A stretch of 53,815 nucleotides of DNA from a virus. A program made the translations under genes and the position numbers. The notes below the pieces were generated by a model. It was not told the DNA's origin, ran no database searches, and was given only the letters and a program-made list of their open reading frames with translations. Numbering within the stretch: position 1 is the stretch's first letter; every line of letters starts with the position of its first letter. The stretch covers positions 1 to 53,815 of the IMG/VR virus record IMGVR_UViG_3300045988_111174; one strand, 5' to 3'. Shown here piece after piece: positions 3,142 through 29,224 of the stretch.

Positions 3142-3533
3142 TGTACAATGTCCTCCTTAATCCTCTCCATCGGGTCGCTGAAATTGATCGTCAGTCCGAT
3201 CCTGTCGAACACGTCCTGAATCAGCTCCTCACCCGTGAGCCGATACAGTATCGCGTCGTCCACAGCCTTCAGCACGTCTTTGCAGCGCTTCTGCCCAAAT
3301 CCATGCAACTCATGCAGCGCAAGACACAGCGCCGCGTAGCAAGCCTTTACAGTGTCCTCGCCGGCCAGCTTGTAGCCCGCGTTAAATCCATCGTCGTAAT
3401 TGCGCTTGAGATCGTCCAGCGTGATGCCGTTTTTGCAGATGCGCTCGATCCGTTCCTGCCGGGTCATGTTGTGGAAAATGGGCTTTTTCCTGGGCGCGTC
3501 CCGCTTCGCCTCTCGGCGCTGTTTACGATTCAT
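3138..3533 (-). CDS. Hypothetical protein (basic N-terminus)
   Basis: The 131-aa ORF sits within the operon and has start/stop overlaps with both neighbours. Confidence 0.7.
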   Translation of the reverse strand: MNRKQRREAKRDAPRKKPIFHNMTRQERIERICKNGITLDDLKRNYDDGFNAGYKLAGEDTVKACYAALCLALHELHGFGQKRCKDVLKAVDDAILYRLTGEELIQDVFDRIGLTINFSDPMERIKEDIVQ

Positions 3534-7695: not shown

Positions 7696-8003
7696 TCCCT
7701 CCACATTTTGATCAGCTTGGGGTAGGTGACGATGCACCCCATCACCCACGCCCAGCCGTCCGCGATCCTGTCCCGCACGCGCTGACGCAGCGGGCGCTTC
7801 CGCACGGTTTGCCGCATCCGCAGGTCTTCGGCCAGCAACCGGTTGCGCCGCGCTCGGGTCACGGCCAGCTCCGCCAGCAGGGCGGCTTCCTCTGCCTCCC
7901 GGATAGCGTTCTGGCGGCGCAGCTCCTCGGAGACCACTCCGTTGACGTAGGCCTCCACGCCGCCGTTTCCCTTAATGATGCTACACGTCGCGATCCTGTC
8001 CAT
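7692..8003 (-). CDS. Hypothetical protein
   Basis: 103-aa ORF in the operon. Confidence 0.6.
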   Translation of the reverse strand: MDRIATCSIIKGNGGVEAYVNGVVSEELRRQNAIREAEEAALLAELAVTRARRNRLLAEDLRMRQTVRKRPLRQRVRDRIADGWAWVMGCIVTYPKLIKMWRE

Positions 8004-8580
8004 CCTCCAGTGCCTCCTTTTCCGTCATCGCTCGAATCGCCGGAACGATCACTTCGCGGCAGATTTCCGCGAAGCGCTTCTGCCAGGGTGTGTAACGTTC
8101 CACCAGGCATTCCCACCATTCGTCCGGCATGTCAAACTGCCGCATCTCTGCCGCCACATTTAGCGCCGCCGCAAACTCGCTATACGTGTCATAGCCGTCA
8201 GCAGCTTCCAGCACGCGTTCAACTTCCCATTGTGCGTCATCATCCTCTTCTTTGCCTTCCATCATTCGAATGCGCAGATTACCAATGGTTGCATCGCGAT
8301 CAAATTCCTTCTCGGCATGTCGCTCGCCGCAGCATTTTCGAAGCAGCCACTCCTTGCAGGACAGCCATCGACACCAAAAGTCCGTCGCAGATTCGTCCTT
8401 GACGCAGAGTTCTCCCCAGTGATAGGCGTAACTGCCAATATCGCTGTCACAGGTCATCTGCCCGGTCGCCTCGTCAAGGTACATGTTCAGCCATAGGCAA
8501 TCCCCTCCGCCCACCATGTGGATTGCGATTACATCGCCGCAGCGCTTTGCCGTGGCCTTGCGCAAAGATTTGTCAATCAT
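7981..8580 (-). CDS. Hypothetical protein
   Basis: Start at the internal ATG at 8580 (MIDKSLRKATAKRCG..) with AAGGAGG upstream. Confidence 0.65.
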   Translation of the reverse strand: MIDKSLRKATAKRCGDVIAIHMVGGGDCLWLNMYLDEATGQMTCDSDIGSYAYHWGELCVKDESATDFWCRWLSCKEWLLRKCCGERHAEKEFDRDATIGNLRIRMMEGKEEDDDAQWEVERVLEAADGYDTYSEFAAALNVAAEMRQFDMPDEWWECLVERYTPWQKRFAEICREVIVPAIRAMTEKEALEDGQDRDV

Positions 8581-13744: not shown

Positions 13745-15730
13745 TTACGCGACCTCCCTGACGTTTTCGGTGGTGACGGTGAGCGCGGGCGAGTTGTCCA
13801 CGCTGAGGGTGATGAGCTGCCCGGCGGGGCGGGCGACATAGTTGACGCGCTCGGCGTTGTCCACAAACAGCGGCGCGATGACGTCGCAGCGGCGGGACAG
13901 CACGCCGATGATCTCGATGTCCGCATTGACCCTCGCGGCGGTATTCGCGCCTCCGTAGGGCACGAGCGCGCCGTCTCCGGGGATCATGCACTCGCAGCAG
14001 TCCGCCAGCGCGCCGTTGATCTGGCGGTCGAAGAGCTTCCAGCGCACCGTGGGGAACTGCTCGTTGATGCGCTCCTCCAAGAGTCCGCACCGGGCGGACA
14101 CGAAGCGCTCCACATCCGAGATGAGCACCTCCACCTCGGCGCGCCGCTGGCCGATCTGCGTCTGCTGGGCCTCCAGCTCGGCGATGCGCGCGTCGGCCTC
14201 TTTCGCCCGGTCTCGCTTGGCGAGGGTCTCCCTCGCGGCGGCGATTCGCGCTTTGAGTTCGCTGCGCCGGTCGTCAAACTGGCGAGCGCGGAAATCGGGC
14301 GCTTCGGTCTTTGCCGTTCTGAGGCCCGTAAGGCGGCTTTGGAGCGCCTCGACATTCTGGTCAACAGAATAATCGACTTCGGCAGGAAAATCGGCGAGAG
14401 CGGCCTTTGCGGCCGTCTGAACGGCATCAGCGTCGTTTACTTCCCGCTCCGCGTGCTGCAAATCCTCTTCGGCGGCCCTCAGGCGCTCGGAGACGTATTG
14501 CTCGCGCTTTTTGAGCTCCTGACCGCGCGCGTTGATCTTTTCCAGCCTCGCGGCCCTGTCGGCCTTGTGGGCGGCCCGGTGCTTTATCAGCGCGTCGGCG
14601 ATCTTTTCCGTGGGGATGGACTGGCCGCAGGTGGGGCAGGTCTCGGCCATCTCCAGCGGCGGGCAGGCCTCCGTGTAGACGCGCCTGTAGTCGGCCCGGA
14701 GCTGGTCGAGCTGGTCGGCCAGTTCCGCGGCGCTGCGCTTTGCGTCCTCGACGGTGCGGCGGAAGCTGTCGGCGGAGCGGCGGGCGGTATCCGAGCGGCG
14801 GATCGCGTCGGACAGGGCGGTGCGGAGGCGGTCGCGGCGGGCGTTGAAGTCGTCGGACAGGCGGCGCTTGGCGGCGATCAGCTCCGTTTCCACGGAGAGG
14901 ATTTCCCGCTGGAGCTCCGCGGCCTCGCCGTTTCCGGCCCTGAGGGCGGCGGCGGCCTCCTCGCAGCTCTGGAGGCTCTTCTCCGCGTCCCGGAGGCTGT
15001 ACTCCGCGTCCCGGATTTCCGCGTCGCCGTACTGGGGGCGCATGCGGCGCACCTCGTCGATGCGGGCCGGGAGGAGCTGCAGCTCCTTGGCGAGCTTTGA
15101 GCGGCGGTCGGCGAGCACCTTGCGCAGATCGTCCACGGCGCAGCCCACGCGGGAGAGCTCCTCGGCGATGGGCGCGTATTCCGGGCGGGAGAGCAGCTCC
15201 GCGTCCACGTCCACTCCGGACATGGACAGGAGCATGGCGCGCCGGTCGCGCTTATCCATGGCGTTAAACGCGCCGAGGGTGGTCAGCAGGCGGAACATGT
15301 CGCCGCTGGCGATGGCGTTGATGCGGTCGGCGAAGTCCGCCGCCTTGGTCTCAACCTCGTTGATCCAGTAGGTGGACGCGTTGCCCTGATAGACGGCCTC
15401 GGCGGCTCCGCGCTTCTTGACCCAGTTTTCGCGCTGTATACGGCGAAGGACGAATGGCTTGCCGTCCAGCGTGAAGTCCGCGGTGACGCTGGTGTCCAGC
15501 CCGTGGATTTCCTGCCCGTTCGCGTCCAGCGGCTTTTCGCGGAACCTGTCCGAGCCGGGCGCGTCGCCGTTGGCGTTCTTGTTGCCGAGCAGCCAGCAGA
15601 ACGCGTCCACGATGCTGCTCTTGCCAGTGGCGTTGCCGCCGCAGATGCGGGTTTCATCGCCGAAGCGATAATCGGCGCTGCGGATGCCCTTGAAATTCTC
15701 GATGTGCAGCGCGTTTAGATACAGGTGCAT
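13745..15730 (-). CDS. SbcC/Rad50-like SMC-family ATPase with zinc hook
   Basis: The N-terminal motif is IENFKGIRS...GGNATGKSSIVDAF (Walker A). Long coiled coils carry a central CPTCGQ hook. The C-terminal signature/Walker B region is PLFVDNAE. Confidence 0.8.
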   Translation of the reverse strand: MHLYLNALHIENFKGIRSADYRFGDETRICGGNATGKSSIVDAFCWLLGNKNANGDAPGSDRFREKPLDANGQEIHGLDTSVTADFTLDGKPFVLRRIQRENWVKKRGAAEAVYQGNASTYWINEVETKAADFADRINAIASGDMFRLLTTLGAFNAMDKRDRRAMLLSMSGVDVDAELLSRPEYAPIAEELSRVGCAVDDLRKVLADRRSKLAKELQLLPARIDEVRRMRPQYGDAEIRDAEYSLRDAEKSLQSCEEAAAALRAGNGEAAELQREILSVETELIAAKRRLSDDFNARRDRLRTALSDAIRRSDTARRSADSFRRTVEDAKRSAAELADQLDQLRADYRRVYTEACPPLEMAETCPTCGQSIPTEKIADALIKHRAAHKADRAARLEKINARGQELKKREQYVSERLRAAEEDLQHAEREVNDADAVQTAAKAALADFPAEVDYSVDQNVEALQSRLTGLRTAKTEAPDFRARQFDDRRSELKARIAAARETLAKRDRAKEADARIAELEAQQTQIGQRRAEVEVLISDVERFVSARCGLLEERINEQFPTVRWKLFDRQINGALADCCECMIPGDGALVPYGGANTAARVNADIEIIGVLSRRCDVIAPLFVDNAERVNYVARPAGQLITLSVDNSPALTVTTENVREVA

Positions 15731-17060: not shown

Positions 17061-17101
17061 TTAGGCGTTTTTATTATAACTCCTAAAATGTTAGGTGTCA
17101 A
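17061..17101. promoter_or_regulatory. Overlapping divergent promoters with TTAGG-type operator repeats
   Basis: The minus strand has TTGACA (17101..17096), a 17-nt spacer and TATAAT (17078..17073). The plus strand has TTAGGC (17061), a 17-nt spacer and TAAAAT (17084..17089). TTAGG occurs at 17061 and 17091, and the inverted CCTAA at 17082. Confidence 0.65.
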
Positions 17102-18123: not shown

Positions 18124-18205
18124 TGTGGTTTCCTCCTCGTCTCGGTCGCGATTGACAGTCGCCTGTCGGTGTGGTAGAGTGGTCTCAAGGCTCCGGGGTT
18201 GTTCC

Positions 18206-18255
18206 CTCTCTCAACCTTGTGAGTTAATTATACCAAACCAAACTTGGTTTGTCAA
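18206..18255 (-). promoter_or_regulatory. Consensus sigma-A-type promoter with a palindromic operator in the spacer and a conserved initial transcribed motif
   Basis: On the minus strand, TTGACA (18255..18250) is followed by the 17-nt spacer aaccaagtttggtttgg, which contains the palindrome AAACCAA-GT-TTGGTTT. TATAAT (18232..18227) follows, then TCACAAGGTTGAGAGAG (18222..18206). Confidence 0.7.
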
Positions 18256-20920: not shown

Positions 20921-21018
20921 AGTGTATTGCATTAAATGCAATATGTCAATAGGTTTAGCAAAAAAATTGCACCAAATGCAATTTTTATCTTGACAAATCT
21001 TGACTTTGGAAATAAAAT
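20921..21018. promoter_or_regulatory. CI/Cro-type switch: divergent promoters with two ATTGCA-N-TGCAAT operators
   Basis: O1 is ATTGCAT-TAA-ATGCAAT at 20926..20942, a perfect 7-bp inverted repeat. O2 is ATTGCAC-CAA-ATGCAAT at 20966..20982. The plus-strand promoter is TTGACA (20990), a 17-nt spacer and TAAAAT (21013..21018). The minus-strand promoter is TTGACA (20949..20944), a 17-nt spacer and TACACT (20926..20921), with O1 in its spacer. Confidence 0.7.
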
Positions 21019-24397: not shown

Positions 24398-24718
24398 TCA
24401 TTTCCACCCATCGATCATCGCCTTGACCTCTGCGGTCTTGGCGATGAGGTCGTTGTGGATGGCTTCCCACGCTGCGATCATGCCGTCGGCGTAGGCGGGG
24501 TTGCGCTTGTACTCCTCGGAGGCCTTGTAACCCTCGATCAGCTTCTTCACCACGGCGTGGCCGTTGGTGTTGAAATTGATGTGAGCCGCGGCCATCTCGC
24601 GATACCACGCGGCGGCCTCGGGATGCTCCGCCTTTAGGTCGTAGGCCGTGCGGATTTTGCCGCGGGCCTCCTCGATGTTGCCGGCGATGTCGTTGCTCAG
24701 GCGCTTGATGATCTTCAT
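24398..24718 (-). CDS. Helical hypothetical protein (cargo island gene 5)
   Basis: The 106-aa ORF has GGAGG upstream and no recognised motif. Confidence 0.65.
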   Translation of the reverse strand: MKIIKRLSNDIAGNIEEARGKIRTAYDLKAEHPEAAAWYREMAAAHINFNTNGHAVVKKLIEGYKASEEYKRNPAYADGMIAAWEAIHNDLIAKTAEVKAMIDGWK

Positions 24719-24730
24719 ATCCGCGCCTCC

Positions 24731-25165
24731 TTAGGCCAGCTTGACCGCGCTGGCGCATACATGGCTGACCGTTCCGGCAACGCCGCTCAAGCGCGCGCTG
24801 ATGACGGGCTGGATCGCGCAGCAGGTGGCAAGCCGCACCACCGTCTCCACGTGCTGGGTGATTTCGCCTCCCGCCGCCACGGTATCCGTGGTAATCGCGC
24901 AGGGCATGGGCGTGGAGCCGTTGTAGAGCTGGAGCACCTGAGCGCCCGCCGCGCCGGGAGTGCTGGTCACGTCATAGCTGACGCGGAACAGGCCGCCGGC
25001 GTTGATGCGGAAGCCGCCGCTCTGGGTGGTGATGGAGCAGCCGGTGTCGGTGATCTGGGTGCCGAGCACGTTGATGGTCGTCCCATCGGCGGTGTAGGTC
25101 TGCAAAGCGGCGTTGTATGCGGCCTGCGCAGACTTCTGGTGGACGTTTTTGCAATTGCAGGACAT
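24731..25165 (-). CDS. Cys-capped beta-rich protein (BclA-C/C1q- or Ena-like jelly-roll suspected; cargo island gene 4)
   Basis: Start at ATG 25165 with AAGGAGA upstream. The N-terminus is MSCNCKN. The body is Gly/Thr/Val-rich and strand-like (GGFRINAGGLFRVSYDVTS..AQVLQLYNGSTPMPCAI). Cys residues occur near the C-terminus (LATCCAIQP, HVCAS). Confidence 0.35.
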   Translation of the reverse strand: MSCNCKNVHQKSAQAAYNAALQTYTADGTTINVLGTQITDTGCSITTQSGGFRINAGGLFRVSYDVTSTPGAAGAQVLQLYNGSTPMPCAITTDTVAAGGEITQHVETVVRLATCCAIQPVISARLSGVAGTVSHVCASAVKLA

Positions 25166-25251
25166 ATCGTTTCTCCTTTCCAATTCATAGCGCCCGCCCG
25201 GCGCATGGCTCGGACGGGCGCAGGCGCTGTTATAACGCGTATGTCAGTTGG

Positions 25252-25950
25252 TTACGCGACGTAACCGGCTCCGCAGTTTCCGCAGCCCTGCGCGGCGTAG
25301 GGGTTGTAGCCCGACTGATACGGGCTGCACGTCAGATACGCCGGCACAGGGGTCTTGTTGATGGCCGAGAGCAGCGTGTTGGTCTGCGACAGCGTGCCGA
25401 GCTGGAGCTGGGCCGCCTGCAGGTTGTCGCGCAGCTCCTGCATCGTGTTGGCGTTGATGAGCGCGCGGGTGGCCTCGCCCTCCGCGTGGATCGCCGTCTT
25501 CACATCGCAGCAACACTGCGCCTGCTGGGCCTGCATGGCCTGAGCCTGCAGGGCCGCGTCGTAGCGGTTCTGCATGATTTCCTTCTGGGTGGTGCAGCAG
25601 CACTGCTGGGCGGCAAACCGATTTTCCATGATCGACTTGTCGATGCCGGCCAAGCCGAGCTGGGTGTTGTAGCGATTCTCCAGCACGTCGCGCTGCACGC
25701 CAAACTGGTCACGCATCAGGCCGTTCTGGTTGCGGAGGATTTCGGCGGTGTTAAAACCGTCGGCCATCTCGCCGCGGGTGAGCGCACCCTGAAGGCCGGC
25801 ATTGCCGTTGCCCCACAGACCGCCACCCATCATTCCGAATACCAGGAAGAGCACGACGATCCAAAAGAAACCGCCGTCGCCGAAAAATCCGTCGCAGTTG
25901 CGATCCTTATTGGTCACGGCCGCGATGTCGGCAAGGGTCATATTGTCCAT
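25252..25950 (-). CDS. Membrane-anchored Cys-triplet repeat protein with YjcZ-like N-terminus (cargo island gene 3)
   Basis: The N-terminus is CDGFFGDGGFFWIVVLFLVFGMMGGGLWG. Internal repeats are VLENRYNTQ, IMENRFAAQQCCCTTQKE and IMQNRYDAALQ..AQQAQCCCDVKT. The C-terminus is GCGNCGAGYVA. Confidence 0.6.
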   Translation of the reverse strand: MDNMTLADIAAVTNKDRNCDGFFGDGGFFWIVVLFLVFGMMGGGLWGNGNAGLQGALTRGEMADGFNTAEILRNQNGLMRDQFGVQRDVLENRYNTQLGLAGIDKSIMENRFAAQQCCCTTQKEIMQNRYDAALQAQAMQAQQAQCCCDVKTAIHAEGEATRALINANTMQELRDNLQAAQLQLGTLSQTNTLLSAINKTPVPAYLTCSPYQSGYNPYAAQGCGNCGAGYVA

Positions 25951-26005
25951 TTAGGTCACTCCTTTTTGATATTTATCCTCAGCCCGTAGCGCTCCGGGCA
26001 AAGAA

Positions 26006-26224
26006 TCATCCCTTGAAAAATCCCTGCATCTGCTCGGCGATCTGCTTCGCCTGCTCAAGCTGCTGGGCGTTGATCTGGCCGCTTTGCAGCATCTCGTTGA
26101 TCTTCTGCTGGGCGGATTGCGGCGACCACATCTGTCGAAATTTCCGGAACTGCTGCAGCATCTGCATTCCCGGTATCTGGGCGTTGGCCTGTTTGGCCAT
26201 CATGCCGATGAGAGGGTTGCTCAC
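26006..26224 (-). CDS. Small Gln-rich helical protein (cargo island gene 2)
   Basis: The GTG at 26224 overlaps the upstream stop (GTGA), with GGGAGGGA upstream. The sequence reads ...MQMLQQFRKFRQMWSPQSAQQKINEMLQSGQINAQQLEQAKQIAEQMQGFF. Confidence 0.55.
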   Translation of the reverse strand: MSNPLIGMMAKQANAQIPGMQMLQQFRKFRQMWSPQSAQQKINEMLQSGQINAQQLEQAKQIAEQMQGFFKG

Positions 26225-26649
26225 AGGTTGATCCCTCCCAGCGCGTTTTCGAGCTGCGACAGCTTGTCCGACACAGCCTTGATCTCTTCCTTGGTGGCAA
26301 ACTGCGACACGTCGATCTGGGGCGCGGGCGCAGCCTGCGTCTGGGCCTGCGGGTCGATTTCCAGCAGCCGGAACGACTTGAGCGTCGCCGTTCCCATGCT
26401 GTCCACGGCCTTGACGTGGATGACCGGGTCGTTGTTGTCCATCATCCACGCCGTCTGTCCGGGCTGGACGATGTGGTCGCGCGCGCCCTGCACGCCGTTG
26501 ACGTAGATCCACGACACATTGCTCTGCGCGCCGCTGTTCTGCGGCGGCAGCTGTTGCGTCATCTGCATCATCTGGGGCTGAGGGGGCATGTAGTTGGCGT
26601 TGAAATATCCCGGCACAGCGGGCTGTGGGAATGGGTAGTTATAAGCCAT
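26221..26649 (-). CDS. Pro/Gln-rich N-terminus plus small beta domain protein (cargo island gene 1)
   Basis: ATG at 26649 with GAGGTG 6 nt upstream. Translation is MAYNYPFPQPAVPGYFNANYMPPQPQMMQMTQQLPPQNSG, then WIYVNGVQGARDHIVQPGQTAWMMDNNDPVIHVKAVDSMGTATLKSFRLLEI. Confidence 0.65.
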   Translation of the reverse strand: MAYNYPFPQPAVPGYFNANYMPPQPQMMQMTQQLPPQNSGAQSNVSWIYVNGVQGARDHIVQPGQTAWMMDNNDPVIHVKAVDSMGTATLKSFRLLEIDPQAQTQAAPAPQIDVSQFATKEEIKAVSDKLSQLENALGGINL

Positions 26650-26858
26650 GCGTTGCACCTCGCTTTCTGATGCTATTTTCGCATGGGCGGCGGTGGAGTG
26701 CGGGAAACTATGCGGGGTTTGTGGGAAAAATCAAAAACAAGTGAAGAAATTGAAGATACAACACAAGAAAGAACGTAAGACGTATCAAAAAAAGAGTGAA
26801 ATTTGAAGTATACTTACAGAAAATCCGGCCAAAAATGAAAATAACGCCCGTCATAGTA

Positions 26859-26887
26859 TTGACAAGGCGTTGATGTTGTGTTAATAT
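26859..26887 (+). promoter_or_regulatory. Near-consensus sigma-A-type promoter of the orphan small RNA
   Basis: TTGACA (26859..26864), a 17-nt spacer and TAATAT (26882..26887). Confidence 0.7.
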
Positions 26888-26893
26888 ATAGGT

Positions 26894-27052
26894 GTCGTCA
26901 GAGATGGCGGCTGTCAGGCTCGGAGCACCGAGCGTAATTGTCCTGATGCTGGGCACTGTGGATTAAAATAAAACGGTTGCTGCATTGGACACTGTTTGAG
27001 CGTTTACGTTCAGCAACAAAAATGGCGCCGAGATTCTCTCGGCGCCATTTTT
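26894..27052 (+). ncRNA. Stand-alone structured small RNA (about 160 nt), class unknown
   Basis: The promoter above and the intrinsic terminator at 27017..27053 bracket a segment with no plausible protein gene. Internal hairpins are GCUCGG-agca-CCGAGC (26918..26933) and GUUGCUG...CAGCAAC (26976..27017). The only ORF is a 20-codon MAAVRLGAPSVIVLMLGTVD (26904..26966). Confidence 0.55.
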
Positions 27053-27053
27053 G
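27017..27053. terminator. Bidirectional rho-independent terminator
   Basis: The sequence is CAAAAAT-GGCGCCGAGA-ttc-TCTCGGCGCC-ATTTTTG. The 10-bp GC-rich stem is flanked by an A-run and a T-run. It ends the sRNA on the plus strand and the 27064..27630 gene on the minus strand. Confidence 0.8.
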
Positions 27054-27063
27054 TTGCCCTGAT

Positions 27064-27630
27064 TCAGCCCTTGAGGCTGTCGTCGATCGCTCTTTGCATC
27101 ATGGCGATTGCGTCCTCTCTGGAAACCGATCTCCAGCCCCAATAGTCATTGCCTCTGGTCATCTCGTCGTCATTGAGGACGAGATACCAGCCTCCGTTAT
27201 CATGCTCCCGGTATTCGGCTTCCAGTTCTTCAGCCGACGCGTCTTCGCCGAGGCTGCGCCAGTAAAAGTCCACTCTGTAATTGCTTCCCCTGCCGCGTGC
27301 CCAATCGAATGCTTTTTCCGCATCGTCAAACACGCCGCTGTCAAAGCACAGGCCTTCCCGGTTTATGAGGTCTACGATGATTTCGCCCTTCATGTTTTTG
27401 TCCTCCTTGTTTTTCCGGATCAGTTCGTCCACCGTGCAGTTCAACGCATCGGCCAGCCTGAGCAGGGAGCTGATGCGCGGGTCGCGCTTGCCCATCTCCC
27501 ACTTGGCGATCATCTGCTGGGTGCTGCCGATTGCCTCGGCGAGCTGTTGCTGGGTCATGCCCAGCGCGATTCGGCGCTGGGCGATGGGGCTGCTGCCCGT
27601 GTTGCTGTTAGGTCTTGGGTCAGTGCGCAT
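27064..27630 (-). CDS. XRE-family HTH protein with an unknown 110-aa C-terminal domain (last gene of the three-gene cassette)
   Basis: Start at ATG 27630 with AAGGAGGAG upstream. The HTH is RRIALGMTQQQLAEAIGSTQQMIAKWEMGKRDPRISSLLRLADALNCTVDELI. The C-terminal domain is Trp/Asp-rich. Confidence 0.75.
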   Translation of the reverse strand: MRTDPRPNSNTGSSPIAQRRIALGMTQQQLAEAIGSTQQMIAKWEMGKRDPRISSLLRLADALNCTVDELIRKNKEDKNMKGEIIVDLINREGLCFDSGVFDDAEKAFDWARGRGSNYRVDFYWRSLGEDASAEELEAEYREHDNGGWYLVLNDDEMTRGNDYWGWRSVSREDAIAMMQRAIDDSLKG

Positions 27631-27835
27631 CTCTTTTCTGCTCCTCCTTGCCGTCGGCGGACTTGCGCAACGATACGCAAAATGCCCAATCTTTCTTCGT
27701 CGGCTTATTTTCTGGATTGCAGTCTGCACAAATCCAGCTGCCTCTAGCAACGATCTCACCCTTGTACCAATACTCGTGGATCCCCGGGCATTGCTTGATG
27801 ATCTTGCCGTACTTGGACGTGTATGTGATCTTCAT
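27620..27835 (-). CDS. Hypothetical small protein
   Basis: 71-aa ORF with an 11-nt overlap onto the downstream start. Confidence 0.55.
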   Translation of the reverse strand: MKITYTSKYGKIIKQCPGIHEYWYKGEIVARGSWICADCNPENKPTKKDWAFCVSLRKSADGKEEQKRDAH

Positions 27836-27895: not shown

Positions 27896-28417
27896 TTATC
27901 TGTTGGCGATCTCCATCATCTTGGCGTAGCCCTCGGGATCGCTGACCTTATACTCTTCCACCCACCGATTAATTCGGTCGACGTACATCTGACCGCCGGA
28001 GATGGTGTTCTTCAGCTCGTCGCGATGGTCGATCCACCACTTGGCGCTGGGGTTTTCGGCGATGATCACGTCGAGCACCCGGATTGTATAAACCCTAAGG
28101 TCATCATAGGCTTTGTCGATGTATACGCGCTGGATCATCAGCGCGTACTTGGCGCGGATGTCCTTCGCCCAGGCGATCTGCTTTTCGCTGCCGGTGAGGT
28201 TGTCCGGCAACTCCACCGGCAGCGCCTTGACGGCCTCGGCCAGCTCGGCGGCTTCCGCTTCGCGGTGGGCCTGCGCGGCGCACTTGGGGCAGAGGGTGAT
28301 GTTTTCGCGCGCCCAAGCCTCGCTGCTGTCCGCGTCCCGGCGGTTGTAGCACTTCTTCCGCCACTCAAATTCGTTTTCACACGCCTTGCAGATGAGCTTC
28401 ACACTTGCCATTGCCAT
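27896..28417 (-). CDS. Hypothetical protein with an N-terminal zinc ribbon
   Basis: Start at ATG 28417 with GGAGGA upstream. The CKACENEF...CPKC pattern is followed by LTGSEKQIAWAKDIRAKY. Confidence 0.6.
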   Translation of the reverse strand: MAMASVKLICKACENEFEWRKKCYNRRDADSSEAWARENITLCPKCAAQAHREAEAAELAEAVKALPVELPDNLTGSEKQIAWAKDIRAKYALMIQRVYIDKAYDDLRVYTIRVLDVIIAENPSAKWWIDHRDELKNTISGGQMYVDRINRWVEEYKVSDPEGYAKMMEIANR

Positions 28418-28462: not shown

Positions 28463-28512
28463 CTCTCTCAACCTTGTGACTATATTATACATCCATTTGG
28501 ATGTATTGTCAA
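28463..28512 (-). promoter_or_regulatory. Consensus sigma-A-type promoter with a palindromic operator and the same initial transcribed motif as the 18.2-kb promoter
   Basis: On the minus strand, TTGACA (28512..28507) is followed by the 17-nt spacer atacatccaaatggatg, which contains CATCCA-AA-TGGATG. TATAAT (28489..28484) follows, then TCACAAGGTTGAGAGAG (28479..28463). Confidence 0.7.
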
Positions 28513-28864: not shown

Positions 28865-29224
28865 TTATTCCTCGGGAGGCTTTTCGTCCTCGGCTTCGGT
28901 TTCCTCCTCCCGTGCCTTCGTTTTGCTGGGAGAGTAAGTGTGCAGGGCATCCACGTTTTCTTTAATAATTGCCTCAATTTCGCTTCGATCCACGCTGTAG
29001 CCGCGCTGACTGAGCTGGTAGATTACCCAGTCCAGTTTCTCGGAGCCGTTTTTGGCTCCGTAGAGCTGTTCGGCGGCAAAGACCATCGTCTTGATGGTCG
29101 CTTTGATCAGCGCCTGCTGCTCGTTGGTCGTCCGCGCCTTGATCCACGGGATCAGCTTGTAGGTAATCAGCGCCGCAAGCAGCGCGATGATCGCCTGGAT
29201 GATGGGGGTCAGATTGATGTTCAT
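28865..29224 (-). CDS. Holin (LL-H-like, N-terminal TM)
   Basis: MNINLTPIIQAIIALLAALITYKLIPWIKARTT....KLDWVIYQLSQRGYSVDRSEIEAIIKENV. The tail is charged. The gene lies downstream of the endolysin and XhlA genes. Confidence 0.65.
   Translation of the reverse strand: MNINLTPIIQAIIALLAALITYKLIPWIKARTTNEQQALIKATIKTMVFAAEQLYGAKNGSEKLDWVIYQLSQRGYSVDRSEIEAIIKENVDALHTYSPSKTKAREEETEAEDEKPPEE

Follow-up and report, generated by a model that had tools for sequence, protein, structure and literature searches.

RNAs that imitate CRISPR repeats are the closest described counterparts of the element reported here, a predicted small RNA (sRNA) gene at 26859..27057 on the plus strand of the phage sequence IMGVR_UViG_3300045988_111174 from IMG/VR, whose full 53,815 nt we analysed and call the window. 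The published solitary repeats among which the RNA anti-CRISPRs (Racrs) were recognised show 91-100% identity to a full repeat over about 90-100% of its length (SRUFinder table); a Racr is expected to have a promoter no more than 250 bp upstream, and one of them, RacrIC1, is situated 11 nt downstream of a homologue of AcrIC5 (Camara-Wilpert et al, 2023, PMC10651486). The viral CracrVA1 consists of a single pseudo-repeat, a pseudo-spacer, and a rho-independent terminator, and 9-10 of its nucleotides proximal to the protospacer-adjacent motif (PAM) match a host cas promoter; Cracrs often accompany acr genes, have host models in CreR/CreA, and include predicted type I-C examples (Liu et al, bioRxiv 10.1101/2024.10.29.618823). 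In the canonical type I-C repeat itself, a 7-bp stem capped by a loop of 4-5 nt is flanked by overhangs of 2 nt (5') and 11 nt (3'); Cas5c is reported to read the 3' overhang, chiefly U22-G23-G24, together with the cut site and the stem base, and not the loop or the 5' overhang (PMC8524198). Type I-C repeats end in GCG|UGGAUUGAAAU/C, and their last 11 nt become the 5' handle of the CRISPR RNA (crRNA), as seen in published tables of repeats and solitary repeats (PMC10651486).

We propose, with our confidence evenly balanced, that the sRNA is a degenerate mimic of a type I-C repeat, an RNA anti-CRISPR of the Racr or Cracr kind that would act on type I-C Cas proteins as part of an adjacent anti-CRISPR locus. 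A first-pass annotation of the window had described the RNA gene; what it missed, judging from the genes and motifs identified here, is the partner system, namely an aca-type anti-CRISPR operon (with AcrIC5 in relatives) next to the RNA and the sequence of a type I-C crRNA 5' handle within it.

A self-contained RNA gene with a type I-C repeat-like handle

The plus-strand unit at 26859..27057 comprises a near-consensus promoter with an extended -10 element, about 160 nt of RNA, and a 21-bp bidirectional terminator. The promoter is of the sigma-70/SigA type (26859..26887), with TTGACA at 26859-64, a 17-nt spacer, and TAATAT at 26882-87; the TG at 26879-80 supplies the extended -10. Only eight sites of the window, this one included, combine a good -35 box with 10 or more matches to the 12 consensus positions (shuffled sequences yield 2.1 +/- 1.5). 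The other seven all lie in regulatory gaps: those at 20949/20990 form a divergent pair, those at 17101, 18255, and 28512 are operon starts, and two more are found at 18152 and 22577. Transcription is predicted to run from about G26894 to about 27055, giving a transcript of about 160 nt. It would end in a perfect 21-nt inverted repeat with a 3-nt loop (27013..27057; arms at 27013-27033 and 27037-27057), which serves the convergent aca operon as well; with A5 before the stem and T5 after it, this terminator can stop transcription on both strands. A simple terminator scanner missed it because A/T pairs lengthen the stem. Among homologues there are compensatory changes at four of its pairs.

No plus-strand gene follows the unit. 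The neighbours, at 27064..27630 and 26221..26649, are both on the minus strand, and independent gene callers, whose results are available for an identical human-gut metagenome phage contig of about 53.9 kb, called nothing in 26659..27063. Rfam gave no match at gathering score anywhere in the window, and all of its sub-threshold matches (E <= 10) correspond to the terminator hairpin; ARAGORN found no tRNA or tmRNA. These results bear out the first-pass annotation, which had described an orphan non-coding RNA gene running from its own TTGACA-17-TAATAT promoter to a bidirectional terminator, with no plus-strand gene beyond and no recognisable RNA family; the extended -10, the full 21-nt inverted repeat, and the compensatory changes extend that description.

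Without its terminator, the body of the RNA is more stable than shuffled sequences (z = -2.97). The consensus fold, drawn from eight haplotypes, consists of three hairpins (P1, P2, and P3), a long unpaired stretch, and the terminator. P1 is a 5'-terminal 7-bp hairpin, GUCGUCA-GAGA-UGGCGGC (26894..26911, plus), that pairs the AUG of a 20-codon reading frame; it is invariant in the eight haplotypes, is disrupted only in the short copies L058, L059, and L060 described below, and may act as a 5' stabiliser. P2 is a 6-bp hairpin, GCUCGG-AGCA-CCGAGC (26918..26933, plus), that appears in every fold and whose sole change in copies bearing the handle is a loop C>U in L049. P3 is a 5-bp hairpin of the consensus fold, UGUCC-UGAUGCU-GGGCA (26939..26955, plus). 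The stems P1-P3 are invariant in the haplotypes folded, and compensatory changes are confined to the terminator; seven sequences have U.G, U-A, or C-G as the third pair of P3 and one has C.A, which is not proof of covariation because all four allele combinations occur. P2 had been recognised in the first-pass annotation, but the longer helix that was said to surround it amounts to one extra pair in one minimum-free-energy (MFE) fold and is not borne out by the homologues. A second helix proposed there, GUUGCUG/CAGCAAC, is possible on paper and does not survive comparison: CAGCAAC is taken up by the extended terminator stem, with which the helix competes, the helix is not kept in L012 or L061, and it is absent from the consensus fold.

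Could the RNA instead be a message for a micropeptide of 20-24 residues, whether type I toxin-like or signalling? The 20-codon open reading frame (ORF) at 26904..26966 (plus; MAAVRLGAPSVIVLMLGTVD) translates as originally given, but it is not the only frame in the unit, which also holds a GTG-extended 24-codon form of it and two TTG ORFs that read through the terminator. It stays open, with its stop at codon 21, in all three 3' architectures found among homologues, and one synonymous change occurs, in L060. Set against this are six non-synonymous substitutions, some of them radical (VIV>ETA, including V>E; G>D), an ATT start codon in L058/59, an AUG buried in P1, and a Shine-Dalgarno (SD)-like AGGTG that is cut by the predicted transcription start and reads TGGTG in L061; the variant peptides are also too little hydrophobic for a membrane toxin. 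With no sign of purifying selection, a buried start codon, and the SD at the transcription start, we rejected the frame as a gene, and a micropeptide mRNA is highly improbable, in line with the doubts voiced in the first-pass annotation. A minus-strand ORF at 26708..26956 is likewise spurious, as its translation diverges fully in L012 beyond a short stretch. It is this ORF that a public gene call in L061 annotates as a 100-aa gene antisense across the sRNA (13752..14054, minus), almost certainly falsely, the translation being conserved neither in L012 nor in the window.

Directly 3' of P3, the RNA reads CUG|UGGAUUAAAAU (26956..26969), of which the 11 nt at 26959..26969 form the handle. The same site in L012, L052, and L061 reads CUG|UGGAUUGAAAU. 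The window's handle equals the type I-C consensus at 10 of 11 positions and a natural variant at all 11; this variant, GTGGATTAAAAT, is present in 12 published type I-C solitary repeats. We built a covariance model, R1, from 20 published type I-C repeats and solitary repeats (PMC10651486 tables) and ran it with filters off. Across the whole window it placed its top match, of 9.7 bits (E = 3 window-wide, 0.01 within the RNA), at plus-strand positions 26940..26969. At the same site in L012, L052, L061, and L063, where the handle is exactly UGGAUUGAAAU, R1 scores 19.2 bits (E ~0.008 over 90 kb), and the best noise match in 45 kb of unrelated phage DNA reaches 8-9 bits. The alignment covers only GUC and G|UGGAUU(A/G)AAAU, and the stem-loop is handled as an insertion. 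R1 found no second type I-C repeat within the 54-kb window, so the handle site is solitary; P2 with its flanks was considered as a second pseudo-repeat and rejected, having received no score from R1. Inside the holin coding sequence (28982..28993, minus) and its homologues lies GCGTGGATCGAA, a match to the atypical RacrIC1 handle that we attribute to chance.

Can this site be arranged as a Cas5c substrate? The proposed repeat mimic spans 26913..26969 (plus) and consists of GU (26913-14), a 3-bp junction helix formed by CAG (26915-17) and CUG (26956-58) around P2 and P3, and the 11-nt handle. When folded in this way, it would share with the canonical repeat a GU 5' overhang, a C-G pair at the cut site, and an 11-nt 3' overhang starting UGG; it differs in lacking a 7-bp stem with a loop of 4-5 nt, in place of which about 40 nt with two hairpins lie between the basal pairs. 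The junction helix is isoenergetic with the open form (-25.6 versus -25.7 kcal/mol). When formed, it sets C26915-G26958 directly beside U26959-G-G, and UGG is present at 26959-61 in all full-length and hybrid copies of the element. In this modelled arrangement, whose junction is inferred, the elements read by Cas5c would all be present, and the part replaced would be the dispensable apical stem and loop.

The handle is followed by a predicted-unpaired 43-nt region in the position of a spacer (psiS; 26970..27012, plus), and both are unpaired in the consensus fold. Its first 10 nt, AAAACGGUUG, fall within an island of conservation, and the remainder is about 20% diverged. The order of handle (26959..26969), 43 unpaired nucleotides, and terminator (27013..27057) is the architecture of a Cracr; the degenerate pseudo-repeat is conserved mainly beside the spacer, as in Cracrs, and the conservation of only the first 10 nt past the handle fits seed-only targeting. 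The sRNA departs from Cracrs in other respects. Its pseudo-spacer is 43 nt long, compared with 33 nt in a mature type I-C crRNA (PMC8524198), the short copies of the element have no pseudo-spacer, and the sRNA is without a known host CreR/CreA counterpart. Nor did we find a target with a TTC PAM in the phage sequences and viral contigs scanned: the window contains no TTC-flanked seed match and no self target, and scans of IMG/VR with TTC plus the seed and with the core 18-mer returned 22 and 13 non-homologous matches, respectively, which is about the chance rate and none of which extends. The first-pass annotation had suggested regulation of the phage cassettes that share the leader start TCACAAGGTTGAGAGAG. 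This idea did not hold up: duplexes between the RNA and phage leaders or ribosome-binding regions, including the TCACAAGGTTGAGAGAG leaders, are no more stable than those of shuffled sequences.

Homologues and repeat-bearing elements in related phages

Searches with sequence patterns and neighbouring genes recovered homologues at 14 loci, representing at least 10 haplotypes. All copies of the element come from metagenomes. The GenBank phage collection held no close relative, the nearest cultured phages being ones that infect Clostridia with about 45% TerL identity; a scan of a genome collection gave one match, attributable to chance, and a 97-kb contig with a relative keeps the circular phage gene order around the integrase and shows no host flank. 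We discarded the hits in L001/L003, L047, L048, L050, L054, and L055, whose agreement with the search words is due to chance. The window, L009, L012/L052, L061/62, L049, L051, and the short copies have the unit; it is cleanly absent from L008, L011, and L066, which retain the genes on both sides. Its presence or absence as a block, with the flanks kept, indicates an insertable promoter-to-terminator module.

Three architectures can be distinguished at the 3' end: full-length copies (type A: window, L009, L012, and L061), hybrids (type C: L049 and L051), and short copies (type B: L010, L007, L053, and L058-60). Comparing the window with L012 and L061, we found an island at 26830..26979 with about 97% identity, flanked by regions of about 77% (26680..26829) and 75% (26980..27130). 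The island covers the promoter and continues through P1-P3 and the handle to 10 nt past it, and so takes in the RNA's first 85 nt. Copies differ in the handle through a G>A change, a 5-nt deletion (L009), or replacement (type B). All six handle-bearing haplotypes have both promoter hexamers intact, and none of them shows a mutation that would weaken the -35 box, P1, or P2, such mutations being confined to the type B copies L058, L059, and L060; the numbers are small, and this distribution favours the handle mattering.

At the handle position, the type B copies (L010 3694..3722 and the equivalents in L007, L053, L058-60, and L064) read UGGGGAUGAACC, which matches exactly a 12-mer from the 3' ends of many type I-E repeats (15 + 15 occurrences in the published table). 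Leaving the sRNA aside, the 1.62 Mb of sequence fetched contain such exact 12-mers in just four independent loci. A type I-E repeat model scores 6.1 bits on the type B site, within noise, and UGGGGAUGAACC is derivable from the type I-C handle by a U>G change, a 1-nt deletion, and a recombination junction. The reading of the type B copies as type I-E mimics was set aside; retargeting of the scaffold between CRISPR types is a low-probability lead.

Two related phages carry more recognisable repeat-bearing elements. L012 has, at 3235..3267 (plus), an element resembling a type I-C solitary repeat, GGCGCCUCCAUCGCGAGAGGCGUUGAUUUAAAU, which scores 18 bits, lies between acrIC5 and aca, and is preceded by a hairpin; its handle has UUG in place of UGG, and it is more canonical than the mimic in the sRNA. 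A degenerate copy of it is found in L061 at about 14330..14365. L019, which has a cargo cassette in common with the window, carries a canonical type I-C mini-array at 7700..8035 (minus), consisting of a TTGACA-17-TATCAT promoter, a leader of about 55 nt, a first repeat GTCGCCGGTCGAAAGATCGGCGTGGATTGAAAT that scores 32.7 bits with the type I-C model, a 32-nt spacer, a second repeat, a 58-nt spacer, a third repeat, and a terminator. The second and third repeats are degenerate, and the spacers match nothing in any fetched sequence. The mini-array and the window's unit belong to the same phage group and the same CRISPR type and share a promoter-leader-repeat(s)-terminator design; they differ in that L019 has three recognisable repeats and two spacers where the window has one degenerate mimic. 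Together, the L012 element and the L019 mini-array indicate that these phages encounter type I-C systems and employ RNA genes that stand alone and bear repeats.

Since L019 shows an intact version in a related phage, the window's unit could be a decaying relic of a type I-C solitary repeat or mini-array that kept its promoter and terminator and is transcribed but neutral. The degenerate repeat hairpin, the variable handle, and the disruptive changes in L060 and L058/59 fit such decay. An island of about 97% identity amid flanks of about 76% argues instead for selection on the promoter and the first 85 nt, the promoter hexamers and stems are intact in every handle-bearing haplotype, and the residues retained are those that Cas5c needs. 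On these grounds we regard a neutral relic as quite unlikely.

The convergent acr-aca operon and other neighbours

The minus-strand operon with an aca-type helix-turn-helix (HTH) gene converges on the sRNA and ends at the shared terminator. It starts from a perfect TTGACA-17-TATAAT promoter (28484..28512, minus) whose spacer holds a 9-bp inverted repeat, ATACATCCA/TGGATGTAT, that is likely, from its position, to be the Aca operator. A gene for a 173-aa zinc-ribbon-like protein (phrog_16123; 27896..28417, minus) precedes one for a 71-aa Cys-containing protein (27620..27835, minus). The latter occupies the slot that in L012 and L061 belongs to AcrIC5; its sequence is unrelated to AcrIC5 and to any known family. 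In L061/L062 and L012 the slot protein matches PF22147 at 40.4 and 38.7 bits, respectively (cut-off 27), and its top PDB match is 7yhr, 'Anti-CRISPR protein Type I-C5'. The aca-type regulator follows (27064..27630, minus), with 75% identity over 72 aa to the L012 aca located after AcrIC5. Judged by its gene content, the locus is an acr-aca operon directed, in relatives at least, against type I-C. We had formed the type I-C idea before inspecting the neighbours; AcrIC5 and aca were found in the relatives only afterwards. By their association with aca, the 71-aa protein of the window is a candidate anti-CRISPR, as are its 173-aa protein and the 94-aa and 186-aa proteins of the type B loci.

The regulator is fused in frame to a 110-aa acidic C-terminal part (MKGEIIVDL...; 27064..27396, minus), which has a GGAGGA ribosome-binding site and an ATG of its own. 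This segment is absent from the aca of L012, L061, and L010, separate in L008, and without a Pfam or PDB match; its sequence context suggests that it may be an independently translated anti-defence protein.

Perfect TTGACA-17-TATAAT promoters occur at 28463..28512 and 18206..18255 (minus), and also at 17101, with a different palindrome in each spacer: ATACATCCA/TGGATGTAT at 28512 and AAACCAA/TTGGTTT at 18255. Two of these palindrome-in-spacer promoters lead into the identical leader start TCACAAGGTTGAGAGAG, and the unrelated AcrIC5 phages L097 and L101 use the same design for the cassette after aca. By their layout, they look like a family of repressor-gated moron promoters.

On its other side, the sRNA is divergent from a minus-strand cargo cassette (26658 to 24398) and so sits between this cassette and the HTH operon, the placement that had been described from the start as divergent from a cargo island and between two cassettes. 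The cargo cassette (24398..26658, minus) lies between the sRNA and the integrase and holds five small genes: phrog_21718, phrog_22984, phrog_16490, one for a weakly BclA_C-like protein, and one unknown. The phrog_16490 protein is a Cys/Gln-rich coiled coil with an N-terminal membrane segment. The cassette is common to phages down to 42% identity.

With transcription units on both sides, it might be that the promoter matters and the RNA does not, convergent transcription serving to modulate or insulate the acr-aca operon or the divergent cargo cassette. The unit does converge on the aca operon with a terminator in common, its -35 box overlaps a weak promoter-like site of the minus strand, and an inverted repeat, AACGCC-N17-GGCGTT (26843..26871), brackets the -35 box. 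This pattern has two matches in the window where 0.07 are expected, and the repeat may be an operator, on sequence grounds; one half-site of it, AGGCGTTGAT, recurs at the end of the L012 solitary repeat. No Aca operator is visible at the sRNA promoter (26859..26887). Against a role for the promoter alone, the 21-bp terminator should halt the two polymerases short of a collision, conservation is as high in the transcribed 5' 85 nt as in the promoter, and the whole unit is gained and lost as one module. We consider this alternative very unlikely.

How does the locus compare with Racrs? The sRNA and RacrIC1 are both encoded by phages or prophages, lie outside arrays, and carry a type I-C repeat 3' end. 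The sRNA has its own strong promoter, which ends 72 nt upstream of the handle, well inside the 250 bp used for Racrs. It also adjoins acr and aca genes: AcrIC5 and aca end at the shared terminator in L012 and L061, and the window has the orthologous aca with an unrelated gene in the acr slot. The position of the L012 element between acrIC5 and aca is the layout published for RacrIC1, and the proposed action, competition for Cas proteins, would be the same by analogy. The differences are that the sRNA matches only GU, the basal pairs, and the 11-12 nt of the repeat 3' end where Racrs have near full-length identity; that it has the P2/P3 junction in place of the repeat hairpin; that it lies on the strand opposite the acr operon where a Racr is co-transcribed; and that the mimic is preceded by an invariant 65-nt structured 5' domain. 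We assign the sRNA to neither class, since Racrs are defined by near full-length identity to a repeat, which it lacks, and Cracrs by a host promoter target.

Several observations weigh against a repeat mimic. The window's own R1 score of 9.7 bits is at the noise level and not significant alone, so the case rests on homologues and context; the motif was first spotted by eye, which makes its own statistics post hoc, and we estimate that a 12-mer with at most one mismatch should turn up about 0.45 times per window. The RNA lacks the canonical 7-bp GC-rich hairpin of the repeat. The 3-bp helix at the junction is our own proposal: it is energetically neutral, does not appear in the MFE or RNAalifold structures, and is formed by bases that are invariant and thus uninformative for covariation. 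The handle is damaged in nearly half of the copies, with a 5-nt deletion in L009 and, in the type B copies (L010, L007, L053, and L058-60), GGGGAUGAACC in its place and no pseudo-spacer, and L010 and L053 retain an intact promoter and P1-P3 despite the lost handle. The most conserved part of the RNA is its non-CRISPR-like 5' domain, which may be a 5' stabiliser and scaffold. At eight loci reached through three other AcrIC5 proteins, most of them with an HTH gene downstream, neither such an RNA nor any I-C-like match is present.

Some of these same points, namely the conservation of P1-P3 rather than of anything repeat-like, the type B copies that keep P1-P3, the noise-level score, and the missing Rfam match, would suit a trans-acting phage sRNA unrelated to CRISPR, which pairs with host mRNA or binds another protein and in which the I-C-like dodecamer is a coincidence or a passenger. 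Such an RNA leaves unexplained the 19.2-bit matches in L012 and L061 and the type-matched neighbours, that is, AcrIC5 with aca, the L012 solitary repeat, and the L019 mini-array, and its complementarity to phage leaders and ribosome-binding regions does not rise above shuffles. We see it as a doubtful explanation that still deserves consideration. Weighing all of this, we are as inclined to accept as to reject the view that this anti-CRISPR locus includes a minimal mimic of the type I-C handle embedded in a scaffold, as judged from comparative sequence evidence.

Proposed action and what it would mean

Of the roles listed in the first-pass annotation, the evidence favours an RNA that sequesters protein or is the RNA component of an accessory system made of RNA and protein. 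As a type I-C repeat mimic, the sRNA would be bound by host Cas5c and perhaps cleaved after G26958. It might then act as a decoy in the manner of a Racr, titrating Cas5c and Cas7 away from real crRNAs. Alternatively, as a fake guide in the manner of a Cracr, the 3' product, consisting of the handle, the pseudo-spacer, and the terminator hairpin, could load into Cascade, the terminator hairpin standing in for the crRNA 3' stem-loop; seed-only complementarity to the promoter of a host cas or toxin gene would then lead to repression. The host target in such a case would read 5'-TTC-AAAACGGTTG, with position 6 free. Constitutive expression from the prophage would also shield the prophage from self-targeting.

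A bolder version is that the sRNA represents a new design of RNA anti-CRISPR, in which a three-hairpin scaffold displays the minimal Cas5c elements at the base of a three-way junction, the processed 3' half serves as a counterfeit Cascade guide, and the 'warhead' is exchangeable across CRISPR types. We think this unlikely in its full form.

To our knowledge, RNA anti-CRISPRs have so far been found by requiring near-identity to a full CRISPR repeat. If the sRNA is active as proposed, a far more degenerate mimic suffices, in which the residues read by Cas5c are grafted onto an unrelated structured scaffold, and searches by repeat similarity would badly under-count RNA anti-CRISPRs. The sRNA would also provide a compact natural RNA that binds Cas5c or Cascade of type I-C, which is among the commonest CRISPR types and is used in genome engineering. 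Even if it is not active, the locus is still a clear example of anti-defence islands built from promoter-to-terminator modules; if it is, it would offer a test case for how gut prophages silence host immunity through constitutive small RNAs.

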